From the IMG/VR virus record IMGVR_UViG_3300046096_000179, positions 63,124 to 127,123 of that record: 64,000 nucleotides of DNA. One strand, given 5' to 3'. Source of the DNA: a virus (Duplodnaviria > Heunggongvirae > Uroviricota > Caudoviricetes). The notes beneath the pieces were generated by a model. It was not told where the DNA came from and did not search any database. It saw nothing but the letters and a program-made list of their open reading frames with translations. This document shows, piece by piece, positions 59,990-64,000 of this stretch; the first letter of the stretch is position 1, and every line of letters starts with the position of its first letter. Position numbers and translations under genes: made by a program.

Positions 59990-60085
59990 GACCTCTTAGA
60001 GCCTTCGTAATCGCTTGGGAATACCAAGGTAGCCAAGGCATGCTACAAAGCCTCTAAGAGAGTTTAGATGGCCTACAAAAGATCC
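59990..60085 (+). repeat. structured intergenic element (copy 3) with taccaaggtagcca core and a long inverted repeat ctcttagagcc / ggcctctaagag
   Basis: Motif sharing with 7591..7685 and 37060..37150. Confidence 0.45.
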
Positions 60086-60103
60086 ATCATAAAATGGATT
60101 GTA

Positions 60104-60289
60104 TCACAGAAATGGACTGGGAGTAAACTTCTTCAGGGAATCTTTCCTGATCCAGAAGTAACGCTGCGTCCCCGGTTTCCGAACCCATAGAAACTCAATA
60201 CCATCAATATGCTTGGTATGCATATCATCAGAAGTCTCCCACTTGTCATCCGGATCAATGATGTTGACATAGTTAATCAGCTTAGTCAT
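60104..60289 (-). CDS. hypothetical protein
   Basis: 61 aa. Confidence 0.4.
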   Translation of the reverse strand: MTKLINYVNIIDPDDKWETSDDMHTKHIDGIEFLWVRKPGTQRYFWIRKDSLKKFTPSPFL

Positions 60290-60812
60290 CCGGGAACAAC
60301 TCCTTCAAGGCGGCAATCTGAGTCAGACAGTCATCCAGCGCATTGTGATGATTTCCTACTCGGGGGTAGTTGGTAAAGTCCAGCTTGCATAGCTTGAATA
60401 CCGTTCGGGTATCCGAGATTTGGTAATACTTCCATGGATGCTTCAGATCAAAGGCTTCCAGTGCAGTCTGCAGGTTACCAAAATCAAATACCGTCCCCTG
60501 CGCCCAGTAGGTTGCATGCTTGTTCATTGGGGCCAAGAACATGCTCAGTTGGAGCAAGGCATCTTTCAGATGGATCTGGTCATGCATCAACGCAGCCCTT
60601 GCTTCCTTGGGCTGTGATGCCCACCAATCAAGAGTGTCTTTCCCGACAGTCAATCCAGCTTCTTTTCCGCTGACCGGGGAAACATTTCGATAGAATGTCT
60701 CCATATTGGCGTCGGTGAAGTTGAATTTGACGGCAGCAATCGACGCAATAACAGAGTGCAGGGTATTGTCGTAGGTTTCAATGTCAATCATGACATGGGA
60801 AAATTGACTCAT
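60282..60812 (-). CDS. DEDDh 3'-5' exonuclease (DnaQ-like; DexA/oligoribonuclease-like)
   Basis: Exo I VMIDIETYD; Exo III HNALDDC. Confidence 0.7.
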   Translation of the reverse strand: MSQFSHVMIDIETYDNTLHSVIASIAAVKFNFTDANMETFYRNVSPVSGKEAGLTVGKDTLDWWASQPKEARAALMHDQIHLKDALLQLSMFLAPMNKHATYWAQGTVFDFGNLQTALEAFDLKHPWKYYQISDTRTVFKLCKLDFTNYPRVGNHHNALDDCLTQIAALKELFPDD

Positions 60813-61078
60813 TCTGTCACCACTTTCTTTGGTGGGCGACCGGGTTTACGTCGAACCTTGATTTTTGTGTCCAAGTCCTTGATGGCAACCAGCAGTTCCC
60901 CGGTGGTGGCATCTGCCCATCCTTGCTTCGTTGCCACAGATTCGGTATATGTTGGCTTTGTTCTGAGCAAGGCATCAATCAAAGTCGAATTCTTGACCGG
61001 CTCCTTTTGCTGAACCGGAAGTTCCCCATTGCTTGGTACCGTTGCCTCTGCGACCGGTTGTTTCTTTTTCATTCTCAA
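60809..61078 (-). CDS. hypothetical basic protein (AT-hook-like RRKPGRPPKK)
   Basis: 89 aa. Confidence 0.45.
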   Translation of the reverse strand: MRMKKKQPVAEATVPSNGELPVQQKEPVKNSTLIDALLRTKPTYTESVATKQGWADATTGELLVAIKDLDTKIKVRRKPGRPPKKVVTE

Positions 61079-62186
61079 TTTCCTTGGTTGTCTCTGCCAA
61101 GTGAGCAGAGTTTTCTACGTTAAACATTTTCATTCTGGCAAAGTCCATCCCGACAATAAACTTCCGAAAGTAATTCAGGTCACCAAAACGATTCTTTAGC
61201 TGCTTCAGGATCATCTGATTCATGGCATTCAGGTCATCGGTTCGGATAATTGCCAGCAGGGAATCGCATGTCTTATATGGACCAGTTGAATCTGCAATTG
61301 CCTCAATGTCGTAATCGGAAGCATTCATACCAGCCCGATTTGTCTGAACAGATGACCACAATAGAATATCCATCTCAACCGCCAGTGCCCTTAGTTCCTC
61401 AGCAACGGATGTCTGGTAGGTATAGGTGTTGACTGTGGATGAATTCCTATATCTTGCTGATGCACAGATGCCCAAGTAATCAACAAAAATGACGTCGGGA
61501 ACAAATCCCTTCTTGTTCTTGAGTTCATCCAAGAGAATGCGAATAGTTGCCGCACTGGCAGTTCCTGTTGGATATTCCTTGATGACCAGCTTCCCATGCG
61601 TCTTCTCATTCAGCTTAGAAATCTTGTTCATGAACACCGCCTTGGGGATGTTCTTGATCTCGGATACGTTCTGGTTGAACATATTGGCATCAATTCTCTC
61701 GGCCACCCGCTTCTCGGCCAGTTCCAAGGTCACATACAGAACATTATACCCCTGCTGGAGATAGTCTGCGGCCAAGGAGCATTTAACGGCAGATTTTCCA
61801 ACGCCGCTATTGTGACTTGATATTCCGTTTGTGTAATACCGATGATTTGGATGGTTGACATGAATGTCAACAATTGGTATTTTATTTCCGGTTTTCCTGA
61901 TTACTCCGCTGCAGAATCCAGTTTTACATAAGTAGTCAGTGCGACCAAAAAGATGACGATCATGTGCCTTAACCCACCCATCGCGAGTCTCAAACAGGTG
62001 ATTTGCGTTGCAATTCACTGTAACCCCATCATCGGTCTCCAATACATATTCGTCATACATCCCCTTATGAAAAAAATCAGTAACCGATACCCACCCATCT
62101 GGAGATTCGATTTCAACATCATAGTCCCCCAAAAGGGACTCTATGTCCCCAATTTTAATTGTCATTACAGAAGAAAAATCGATCAT
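60975..62186 (-). CDS. 41: C-terminal split-intein fragment (IntC, 126 aa) fused to the C-terminal extein of the DnaB-family replicative helicase (T4 gp41-like)
   Basis: Intein blocks TVNCNANHLF (B) and VDIHVNHPNHRYYTNGISSHN (F/G) then Ser+1; extein SGVGKSAVKCSLAADYLQQGYNVLYV...IFVDYLGI...LRALAVE matches T4 gp41 (recalled). Confidence 0.8.
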   Translation of the reverse strand: MIDFSSVMTIKIGDIESLLGDYDVEIESPDGWVSVTDFFHKGMYDEYVLETDDGVTVNCNANHLFETRDGWVKAHDRHLFGRTDYLCKTGFCSGVIRKTGNKIPIVDIHVNHPNHRYYTNGISSHNSGVGKSAVKCSLAADYLQQGYNVLYVTLELAEKRVAERIDANMFNQNVSEIKNIPKAVFMNKISKLNEKTHGKLVIKEYPTGTASAATIRILLDELKNKKGFVPDVIFVDYLGICASARYRNSSTVNTYTYQTSVAEELRALAVEMDILLWSSVQTNRAGMNASDYDIEAIADSTGPYKTCDSLLAIIRTDDLNAMNQMILKQLKNRFGDLNYFRKFIVGMDFARMKMFNVENSAHLAETTKEIENEKETTGRRGNGTKQWGTSGSAKGAGQEFDFD

Positions 62187-63492
62187 GTTTAAAGAAATAT
62201 ATAATAAGTTATGCGAACGAGGTAAGAGTCGTCGAGAATTGTGGAGCGTCGGTAGCGGATTTCATCGACACCATGTAATCCCAAGACATGCGGGTGGGGT
62301 GGACTCCGAAGATAACTATACATACCTAACGGTTAGAGAACATATTATAGCACACTTTCTGTTGTGGAAGGTCAACAAAACACCAAACGATTTGCGGTCA
62401 ATGAGGATGTTGGGCGCAAGCCTGACACCAAATCAACGGAGAGAGACTGGGATTTTCTGTCGAGATAACAAAATAGGGATTTTCTCTGATGATTGGAATG
62501 GACTTTCGGAGGCCGGGAAGCGCGGAGGTAGCGCATGTCGAGATAACAAAATAGGGATACATGCACAAACTCCAGAAGAAAGACGAGAACTGGCATCCAT
62601 TGGCGGGAAAATTGGCGGAGCCCGTTGCTACTCTATTGGCGTTGGATTGTTTGGGATGTCTCGGGAAAAATTATTGGCAGCATGTAAATTGGGAGGAGAA
62701 GTTGGTGGTCGGGCAGGGAAGGGTATGGTTTTTTGGACAAACGGGCGCGATCAAACGCGAGCATTTGAATGTCCCGGCGATGGTTGGGTAAATGAGCAAT
62801 TGCCAACGGAGAAGCAACTAATCACCAGAGAAGAAAGAAAGACATCAATAAAATTTAGAATAAAAAATAAAAGAACTGGGGAAATGGGGGAATTTCTTCC
62901 GACCCCAAATTATTCAATCGAAGATTTTATTTTAAACGAACAGGATTGGGAACTTACAAGAAAATATCAGCGAGTAATGAAGCATAATGTTTACTTAAAA
63001 ATTTCCAATGAACTGTTGTCTGAATTCATCAATATGAATTGGAAGATTTTAGCAAACGTCAACAAAACACATCGCGATATAAAAGAGTTTCATTCGGAAA
63101 AGTCAACAGGCATATTCTATAAAAATAAAATAGAAACGAAAATACCTCTGAGGTTAGTTGACATCTTCGTATCGGAGGGCTGGTCTCTATATAAAGACAC
63201 TCTAACTAAAGTCGTATCTTTTGGGAAATATAAGATACAAATAAACCCAGAGCATCTAAGTCACTTCTTAAAGTTAGGGTGGACACAACAACGCTCAACG
63301 ACTCGTTCCCAGAAAACAAACCCAGGATGTATGATGAGATGCAAAACAACACACATACAAATAAAGGTTGAATTTCAAGACGTTGCGCTCATGCAACAAC
63401 ATGGGTTCTTTGTTTCTTCAACAAATGAACATGAGCGAAGGAGAATCAAAAGAATGTTACACAATCTTTCTCTTGATTCTAACATTGACTAA
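62185..63492 (+). CDS. free-standing HNH homing endonuclease with repeated C-terminal modules
   Basis: HNH motif GFHRHHVIPRHAGGVDSEDNYTYLTVREHIIAH; repeats CRDNKIGI...; ATG overlaps the IntC ATG on the opposite strand (CATG); alternative start 62143. Confidence 0.8.
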   Translation: MFKEIYNKLCERGKSRRELWSVGSGFHRHHVIPRHAGGVDSEDNYTYLTVREHIIAHFLLWKVNKTPNDLRSMRMLGASLTPNQRRETGIFCRDNKIGIFSDDWNGLSEAGKRGGSACRDNKIGIHAQTPEERRELASIGGKIGGARCYSIGVGLFGMSREKLLAACKLGGEVGGRAGKGMVFWTNGRDQTRAFECPGDGWVNEQLPTEKQLITREERKTSIKFRIKNKRTGEMGEFLPTPNYSIEDFILNEQDWELTRKYQRVMKHNVYLKISNELLSEFINMNWKILANVNKTHRDIKEFHSEKSTGIFYKNKIETKIPLRLVDIFVSEGWSLYKDTLTKVVSFGKYKIQINPEHLSHFLKLGWTQQRSTTRSQKTNPGCMMRCKTTHIQIKVEFQDVALMQQHGFFVSSTNEHERRRIKRMLHNLSLDSNID

Positions 63493-64000
63493 GGTGTCTG
63501 GATGGACACATGCTCCCATAAGGAGAGCTAGTGTTCTGCGAGTCAATCCCCCGGAGTATATCTTATTCAACAGGTCAATGGATGTTGCCAGCTTGGTCTC
63601 AGATGCATGGTAGAAATCATACCGTTGCTCTGCGTTCTCAAAGTAATCATGTCCAACGTCCTTGTCAAAGGACACCGACAGAGCCTCCTGCATCATGGAT
63701 GGAATCTGATTCTCGGACAGCTTGTCATCTTCCCCGTTGATGATCTTGACCGCCTTCATGATGGCGTTATAGACCGATTTGTCCCGACAGAAGGATTCCG
63801 TCTCGGTCATCAGCCACTCCATATCATAACGATACTCGTCATCATAGGAATCGGTCAGGATTTTCTTGGTGGATGAGTGGTCATCGGCGGATAAACCAGA
63901 CATGGCATCCAGCTTGACATTCAGGACATCCTTGGGAGGCAGTCGGTTGTATTGCTCATAGAAGCCACATACCAACTGATAGAACGTCTTTTCCGCTCGA
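63457..64000 (-). CDS. 41: N-terminal extein of the gp41-like helicase fused to a 17-aa N-terminal split-intein fragment (IntN); 5' end outside the window
   Basis: PSMMQEALSVSFDKDVGHDY and IYSGGLTRRTLALLMGA match the T4 gp41 N-domain up to the P-loop, then CVHPDTLVNVRIKRKIV and stop. Confidence 0.75.
   Translation of the reverse strand, partial: RAEKTFYQLVCGFYEQYNRLPPKDVLNVKLDAMSGLSADDHSSTKKILTDSYDDEYRYDMEWLMTETESFCRDKSVYNAIMKAVKIINGEDDKLSENQIPSMMQEALSVSFDKDVGHDYFENAEQRYDFYHASETKLATSIDLLNKIYSGGLTRRTLALLMGACVHPDTLVNVRIKRKIV

Follow-up and report, generated by a model that had tools for sequence, protein, structure and literature searches.

A gp41 helicase gene of a tailed phage fractured within its P-loop by a predicted split intein and an antisense HNH endonuclease gene

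In a 64,000-nucleotide stretch of a Caudoviricetes genome (positions 63,124 to 127,123 of IMG/VR record IMGVR_UViG_3300046096_000179; hereafter the window), the gene predicted to encode gp41, a DnaB-family replicative helicase, is present as two open reading frames (ORFs) with an HNH homing-endonuclease gene between them on the opposite strand. We read this locus, with a probability of roughly 0.88, as a naturally fractured gp41 gene in which an intein within the P-loop has been broken by the HNH gene and the two encoded polypeptides are spliced in trans to a whole helicase. Joining of the two helicase pieces almost certainly requires a split intein whose N-terminal piece (IntN) comprises only 17 residues. 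A preliminary description of the window had listed an N-domain ending ...LLMGA, a 17-residue tail, a C-terminal intein piece (IntC) and the SGVGKS motif; all were found where it had placed them, and the observation at gp41 is real and was correctly interpreted, although it proved less rare and less novel than was then claimed. The features of the locus are as follows (nt, nucleotides; aa, amino acids).

63511..64000, minus strand: gp41 N-extein, partial, with 163 of 195 codons in the window; ends ...RRTLALLMGA and includes the first Gly of Walker A.
63457..63510, minus strand: IntN, 17 codons (CVHPDTLVNVRIKRKIV) plus TAA; Cys1, a conserved core of 12-13 residues and a basic tail.
62185..63492, plus strand: free-standing HNH homing-endonuclease gene, 435 aa, antisense to the helicase.
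61809..62186, minus strand: IntC, 126 codons (MIDFSS...HRYYTNGISSHN); block B CNANH, block F IVDIHVNHPNHRYY, block G SSHN.
60975..61808, minus strand: gp41 C-extein, 277 codons plus TGA; Ser+1, GVGKS, Walker B VIFVDY.
62184..62187, both strands: CATG start-to-start overlap, with the HNH start at 62185-62187 (plus) and the IntC start at 62186-62184 (minus).
63457..63492, both strands: tail-to-tail overlap of the IntN and HNH 3' ends, 36 nt, comprising the last 11 codons and the stop of each.

The N-fragment ORF exits the window at 64000 on the minus strand and reads ...GGLTRRTLALLMGA, then CVHPDTLVNVRIKRKIV, then a stop, with the last extein Ala at 63511, Cys1 (TGT) at 63510-63508 and the TAA at 63459-63457. 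Its beginning (MRIETLILNVLVNSDEYAKRV..., MRIETLIL...) is carried by the identical contigs L003 and L005, giving a full N fragment of 212 aa, of which 195 belong to the extein and 17 to IntN. The C-fragment ORF (62186..60975, minus strand) encodes 403 aa, in which 126 IntC residues are followed by SGVGKSAVK...VIFVDYLG; the boundary is formed by the terminal Asn codon AAT at 61811-61809 and the Ser+1 codon AGC at 61808-61806. Because the plus strand reads CATG at 62184-62187, the start codons of the HNH gene and IntC have two bases in common. The 36-nt overlap at the other end of the gap was absent from the preliminary description.

The host gene is identified as gp41 by its gp41-like N-domain and its Walker A and B motifs. 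In tblastn searches 2426 phage records gave a gp41 match to the N piece, the best at E about 5e-35. The C piece matched cyanophage gp41 (E 8e-74), and the C-extein matched the Pfam family DnaB_C with 37.1 bits (cut-off 27) and PHROG 19 (E 1.1e-65); the N fragment alone matched no Pfam family. Once joined, the exteins give a gap-free alignment with gp41 of S-CAM9 (RRTLALLMGA/SGVGKS against NKTLNIALAG/TGVGKS, the slash marking the junction), in agreement with the LLMGA/SGVGKS junction first proposed. The closest gp41 in the protein collection, P0007, is intein-less and 77-79% identical to the window exteins; its residues 33-194 map to 63999..63514 (76% identity) and residues 196-435 to 61808..61089 (82.5% identity). 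Since these two blocks abut the element on both sides, they give the exact junction and place the interruption inside Walker A (G-A / S-G-V-G-K-S), which is whole in the spliced product only. Almost certainly, therefore, the helicase is nonfunctional until its two parts are ligated across the ATP-binding loop, and replication of the phage would depend on protein trans-splicing. Matches as strong and exact as these do not arise by chance. No second gp41 homolog was found within the 64-kb window.

A phmmer search of the fused IntN and IntC against all PDB sequences returned the split intein VidaL as the best match (6VGV, E 1.8e-14) and, more weakly, the Spl DnaX, gp41-1 and DnaB inteins. The class-1 splicing residues are present in the window: Cys1, CNANH, IVDIHVNHPNHRYY and SSHN/S. 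At least 71 related loci were scored for each splicing feature, and Cys1, the block B NxxH, the terminal His-Asn and Thr/Ser+1 were invariant in every locus scored; the motif C[VI]HPxTxxx[VI]R directly follows the P-loop Gly/Ala in 71 related loci. A 10-sequence alignment of the window IntC with those of eight relatives and VidaL showed H63, D107, H112, N114, R116, Y117, Y118, H125 and N126 to be invariant. The position of the break is located by P0081 (596 aa), in which the same site is occupied by an unbroken version of this intein (...ILAG/CVHPETKVKIRFSNLIEKEITIAEIK...SSHN/TGAGKS): it falls after ...(I/V)R(F/I) and before (I/L)xxxE. An AlphaFold2 model of this contiguous intein, which is 54% identical to the window IntC, has the HINT fold (predicted local distance difference test score 75.5, predicted template-modelling score 0.65) and places the split position at the turn joining strands 11-16 and 20-25. 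In a Foldseek comparison of the model with the PDB the top 41 matches were inteins or intein-like HINT domains (BIL), the best being 6VGV (E 1.3e-10, TM 0.68). The model thus points to a HINT fold for the gp41 intein, and its sequence assigns it to the inteins split at the S1 position, with a short IntN ending after strand beta2 and an IntC holding the remaining blocks. The basic IntN tail has a net charge of +3, against about -7 for the acidic stretch formed by the first 35 residues of IntC; opposite charges are usual in split-intein partners.

VidaL provides the closest characterised parallel. A passage in PMC13014065 describes it as a cysteine-dependent naturally split intein with an IntN of 16 aa, and places the break of VidaL and PolB16 "immediately following beta-strand beta2 (S1 position)" and that of the AceL and GOS TerL inteins after helix alpha1. 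The HINT domains of VidaL and the window intein are homologous, with 33% identity in IntC; the window IntN aligns to the VidaL IntN CLPKEAVVQIRLTKKG, and the VidaL break (CLPKEAVVQIRLTKKG / MIEEKKVTVQEL, G16/M17) lies within one residue of that in the window (...RLTKKG/MIEEKK versus ...RIKRKIV-stop/MIDFSS). Both inteins have Cys1, terminal His-Asn, Ser+1, an HPNHRYY block F and a P-loop-like extein context. They differ in their exteins, which are ESG and SGK in the VidaL crystal construct (6VGV/6VGW) but GA and SGV here; the former imply a G/SGK junction two residues deeper in the P-loop, or a different host protein. VidaL may also bear the name "VidaL T4Lh-1", which would stand for a T4-like helicase. 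A protein search with VidaL IntC found only a synthetic construct and P0122 (45% identity), a contiguous intein in what appears from its sequence to be a RecA/UvsX-type protein. Homology to VidaL, combined with a split in the same hairpin, means that the mechanism is already exemplified. The earlier claim that gp41 is broken in its P-loop by an intein divided 17/126 is supported.

The scheme that we propose begins with an in-frame mini-intein that separates G-A from S-G-V-G-K-S in the Walker A P-loop. A reverse-oriented, free-standing HNH gene would have broken its coding sequence in the hairpin after the first long beta-strand (S1), so that two polypeptides would be made, one of N-extein and 17-aa IntN (212 aa) and the other of 126-aa IntC and C-extein (403 aa). 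The basic IntN tail would dock on the acidic start of IntC and complete the HINT fold, whereupon class-1 splicing would proceed through an N-S acyl shift at Cys1, trans-esterification to Ser+1, cyclisation of Asn126 and an O-N shift. The predicted product is a 472-aa helicase with an intact P-loop (LLMGASGVGKS) and the junction ...TLALLMGASGVGK.

Alternatively, the helicase fragments might work unspliced, as non-covalent subunits, the intein-like segments being only docking domains. Such an organization is very unlikely here, even though it has a precedent in the NrdA of Aeh1, whose halves, according to the relevant passages of PMC2677866 and PMC3045599, are split by the HNH gene mobE and assemble non-covalently, without an intein. 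As in the window, a free-standing HNH gene has there divided an essential gene of a T4-like phage into two ORFs; the gap at gp41, in contrast, is flanked by complete intein halves, and nothing at the locus points specifically to unspliced subunits. Given that the break lies in Walker A, an unspliced C fragment would bear 126 foreign residues on its phosphate-binding loop. Docking alone, moreover, needs neither Cys1 nor the block B His, the His-Asn or the Ser/Thr+1 that are invariant in all scored loci, and VidaL is reported to trans-splice.

The gene in the gap encodes an HNH homing endonuclease, judging from motif and homology. Residues 2-80 of its product match PHROG 655 "homing endonuclease" (E 1.6e-18), in keeping with what had been claimed for the gene between the halves on the opposite strand, and the N-terminal 80 aa contain the HNH motif HRHHVIP...GG...N...REHIIAH (HRHH...N...EHxxAH); the Pfam HNH score is 15.5 bits, under the cut-off of 21.4. 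The start was assigned to 62185 because the reverse-strand homologs of two related loci begin equivalently: that of L008 (435 aa, 42% identity) begins MFAEIYKRLCE... and has the same CATG overlap (5001/5002), and that of L009 (212 aa) begins MFYDKVYYNLC.... An upstream ATG at 62143 and a shorter 361-aa gene call of the Joint Genome Institute (JGI) were rejected as starts, since the homologs support 62185. The tail-to-tail overlap of the HNH gene and IntN amounts to 26 nt for L008 and to 39 nt for L009, and in other relatives the HNH and IntC starts lie about 30-160 nt apart, mostly 30-70. Homologs in cyanophage-like relatives have 212-222 aa, half the length of the 435-aa HNH protein of the window. 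The additional C-terminal segment of about 220 aa is AT-rich (GC content 0.32 at 62800-63250, against 0.44-0.49 in the flanks), is common to the window and L008 only, and has no Pfam, PHROG or PDB match; it may be DNA-binding. The only PDB matches of the HNH protein, to de novo TIM barrels, were discarded as spurious, having arisen through a short repeat.

Phage group I introns are a frequent home of HNH endonuclease genes, and the interruption could in principle be a group I or II intron that contains the endonuclease gene and is removed at the RNA level, or it could be an assembly chimera. We give this almost no weight. The RNA-intron alternative had been raised in the preliminary description, and a search of 60500-64000 returned no Rfam match at E values up to 1; the endonuclease gene is antisense to the helicase, and on both sides of the gap lie coding sequences for conserved intein blocks, which P0081 and similar relatives have in one piece. 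The locus was found at 99.97-99.98% nucleotide identity in three aligned contigs, one from each of three separate JGI samples, with an identical C fragment on two shorter contigs from two additional JGI samples; the samples in which the contig occurs are 3300046312, 3300046313, 3300046328, 3300043429 and 3300047476. An assembly artefact was discounted because the same arrangement recurs in contigs of separate samples, and the contig is identical across several independent assemblies. A megablast search of 60000-64000 against deposited phage genomes found no near-identical genome.

The split intein of the window is one of a large family. A scan with the IntC alignment recovered 385 related loci in IMG/VR, and a search of the protein collection recovered hundreds of IntC-gp41C proteins of about 390 aa with about 50% identity, so that the short-IntN class is not confined, as had been thought, to a few metagenomic genes. 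Locus classes were counted over 80 of the 385 IMG/VR loci.

53 of 80: split, with a homologous HNH gene on the reverse strand.
5 of 80: split, with a forward-strand HNH gene of another lineage (34% identity).
10 of 80: split, HNH absent, with gaps of 2-943 nt.
5 of 80: contiguous intein.
7 of 80: incomplete.

In the forward-strand class, the 3' end of the HNH gene overlaps the IntC start by about 52-64 nt. Individual loci illustrate what the gap may contain.

L044, 3333-4019, and L086, 3312-4031: forward-strand HNH genes of a different lineage, overlapping the IntC start.
L091, 1787-2764: a 325-aa forward ORF with a helix-turn-helix-like N-terminus, in a 943-nt gap.
L075, 3662-3850, and L060, 3747-4139: short remnants of the reverse HNH gene.

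At least three gene types, in both orientations, thus occupy the same S1 gap among the relatives. In L030 (1411-1534) and L033 (148-271), split alleles that lack the endonuclease gene, only 2 nt separate the IntN stop from the IntC start; 11 nt of the 3' end of the HNH cassette are left, and a T-to-A change there creates a new ATG. These two alleles are endonuclease-deletion derivatives with an intein that is still split, which implies that trans-splicing suffices. In a tblastn search with IntC, no gp41 bearing this intein was found in deposited phage genomes.

The nearest inteins in deposited phages, with 32-37% identity to IntC, lie under UvsX-like recombinase or RecA features (PA5oct-like Pseudomonas jumbo phages) or under the large terminase (Salmonella, Escherichia and Vibrio phages). 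Their sequences hint at one intein clade common to different phage ATPase genes.

Selection was estimated by the method of Nei and Gojobori, as ratios of nonsynonymous to synonymous divergence (dN/dS), over nine cyanophage-like loci, with many saturated extein pairs excluded.

N-extein: dN/dS 0.155, dS 1.49.
IntC: dN/dS 0.137, dS 0.34.
C-extein: dN/dS 0.124, dS 1.27.
HNH: dN/dS 0.112, dS 0.40.

Purifying selection acts on intein and endonuclease alike in these relatives. The values are difficult to reconcile with a decaying gp41 pseudogene hit by a mobile endonuclease, with helicase function coming from the host or from a different gene. Such a pseudogene has some room, since the window shows only 64 kb of the genome and does not include the first 32 codons of the N fragment; it is highly improbable nonetheless, for both fragments are intact ORFs in contigs of three separate samples, the architecture recurs with open frames in more than 60 diverged loci, dN/dS is 0.11-0.16 in all four segments, and the window holds no other gp41. 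As readings of the gp41 locus, we have accordingly rejected the intron, the pseudogene, the assembly chimera and the unspliced two-subunit helicase.

A sliding profile of nucleotide identity over seven loci shows where the conserved block begins and ends.

N-extein: 0.55-0.78.
From about 70 nt before Cys1: 0.83-0.93.
Through IntN, HNH and IntC: 0.81-0.97, mostly at least 0.87.
About 120 nt past the intein: 0.83.
Remaining C-extein: 0.57-0.8.

In the relatives, by these sequence comparisons, the intein and endonuclease form a block much younger than the gp41 that surrounds it, and the pattern fits a horizontally moving cassette of IntN, HNH and IntC that homes as a whole with short co-conversion tracts. 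The similar dS of its parts and an identity block spanning the whole cassette suggest joint movement of the endonuclease gene and the intein. By the most likely route, the HNH enzyme would cut gp41 alleles that lack the cassette, and recombinational repair would copy the intein and the endonuclease gene together; cassette-free gp41 is its most likely target, as inferred from these comparisons. In the lineage of the window, the closest gp41 relative is the intein-less P0007 and the nearest intein-bearing one is only 61-64% identical, consistent with a gain or loss of the cassette.

A different target for the enzyme would be the S1 region of the intein itself, in which case the HNH gene would home only into endonuclease-free intein alleles and would be a parasite nested in the intein and not its carrier. 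Contiguous and naked-split alleles, which are possible recipients, do coexist with the split ones, and the presence of at least three gene types in both orientations in the S1 gap suggests that the site attracts invasion. We nevertheless regard a nested parasite as unlikely, inasmuch as the high-identity block covers IntN, HNH and IntC and ends near the limits of the intein instead of those of the HNH gene, and IntC and HNH have similar dS (0.34 and 0.40). A broader and tentative proposal, rather doubtful at present, is that the S1 hairpin of the P-loop gp41 intein is a second, so far undescribed hotspot for invasion by endonuclease genes, apart from the canonical site between N4 and C2, which at least three lineages would have entered independently and at which all stages of invasion, fixation, decay and loss would be preserved.

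Several points weigh against a trans-spliced helicase. The splicing of the gp41 halves is inferred from the present sequence. The preliminary description had looked to intein block profiles; the splicing blocks are indeed present by alignment, but the fused intein matches no Pfam family at E values up to 10. This miss hampers automatic annotation (the JGI annotation of the intein-bearing protein is "hypothetical") and is not a defining biochemical feature of inteins. The statistics on selection and mobility come from cyanophage-like relatives, the only close intein-bearing relative of the window lineage, L008, being too diverged, and functional constraint on the P-loop region may account in part for the high identity close to the junction. 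As for expression, inspection of the sequence revealed no obvious Shine-Dalgarno sequence upstream of the IntC ATG, the T4-type late promoter consensus TATAAATA is absent from the locus and its gap, and the locus has only weak sigma-70-like matches, on which, as on a terminator scan, no reliance was placed. None of these three kinds of signal thus accounts clearly for expression of the C fragment; the region upstream of the IntC ORF is antisense HNH coding sequence, and read-through from the transcript of the gp41 N fragment is a plausible source.

A perfect 7-bp inverted repeat (GTTGACATGAATGTCAAC) is present at window positions 61854-61871, within the coding region of block F (IVDIHVN). It yields TTGACA -35-like boxes on both strands; that on the plus strand is accompanied by an extended -10 (10/12 matches) about 300 nt upstream of the HNH start and may be coincidental.

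The locus joins known kinds, the VidaL-type S1 split intein and the fractured gp41 gene, and its type is common in viral metagenomes; the antisense HNH gene, the start-to-start overlap and the A/S site in the P-loop are variant features. In the fractured genes gp41-1 to gp41-9 of Dassa et al. 2009 (PMC2677866), all three genes share a strand, the endonucleases, of GIY-YIG or Vsr-like type, overlap the IntC start with their 3' ends, IntN of 88-105 aa and IntC of 33-54 aa meet at the canonical break, and gp41-1 to gp41-7 are inserted at position 356 of P-SSM2 gp41. As in that set, the halves of the host gene in the window keep their original order and orientation and enclose a free-standing endonuclease gene together with the halves of the split intein, and endonuclease-free split alleles occur in both (gp41-7 there). 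The window differs in its antisense HNH gene, its start-to-start overlap, its 17/126 division and its P-loop site. The CATG overlap at 62184-62187 reported by the preliminary description is therefore present, but it is not, as was stated there, the arrangement described for fractured genes, which is a same-strand one with an endonuclease-IntC overlap; that arrangement is seen in the five forward-HNH relatives and not in the window.

Other split inteins share some of these features. AceL-TerL and GOS-TerL are natural split inteins, of phage or metagenomic origin, that combine a short IntN (25-37 aa) with a long IntC, and the GOS terminase intein was found as a fractured gene (PMC2677866); they differ from the window intein in their S2 split after the first helix and in their host, the large terminase. 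The PolB gene of the Pseudomonas jumbo phage MIJ3 has a split intein with an HNH-family ORF between its halves (PMC6892783) and is thus a replication gene of a cultured phage fractured in a comparable manner. Its N fragment, however, contains blocks A, N2, B and N4 (the canonical break), its first residue is Ser1, and its host gene is PolB.

It belongs to the same tentative hotspot proposal that, in the dominant reverse orientation, with starts that overlap or lie 30-70 nt apart, each gene would harbour the signals for promotion and translation of its partner, and expression of the endonuclease and of the C-terminal half of the helicase would be coupled or mutually antagonistic. The known splicing mechanism is left unchanged, and the value of the finding lies more in the family than in the single locus. 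Hundreds of natural split inteins with an IntN of 12-17 residues would become available for protein engineering, and these VidaL-like variants, with an IntN core of only 12-13 residues, are candidate tools for short-tag ligation. The contiguous, invaded (in both orientations), decaying and endonuclease-free split forms also make up a natural series in which the origins of split inteins could be followed.

Two neighbouring ORFs deserve mention. An 89-aa ORF on the minus strand (window positions 60809-61078) overlaps the last 100 nt or so of the gp41 C-extein in a different frame; the JGI gene call there has only 57 aa and an 8-nt overlap, and nothing favours the 89-aa form as real. On the other side of gp41, just past window position 64000, the same phage contig carries a gene for the UvsX recombinase (L005, 2072-3562; 496 aa), which holds a contiguous mini-intein of its own (...QIISGG/CMVAGTEI...VVTHN/TGIMYS) with about 30% identity to the gp41 intein over 123 residues. 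The phage thus has inteins in two adjacent replication or recombination genes, gp41 and UvsX.

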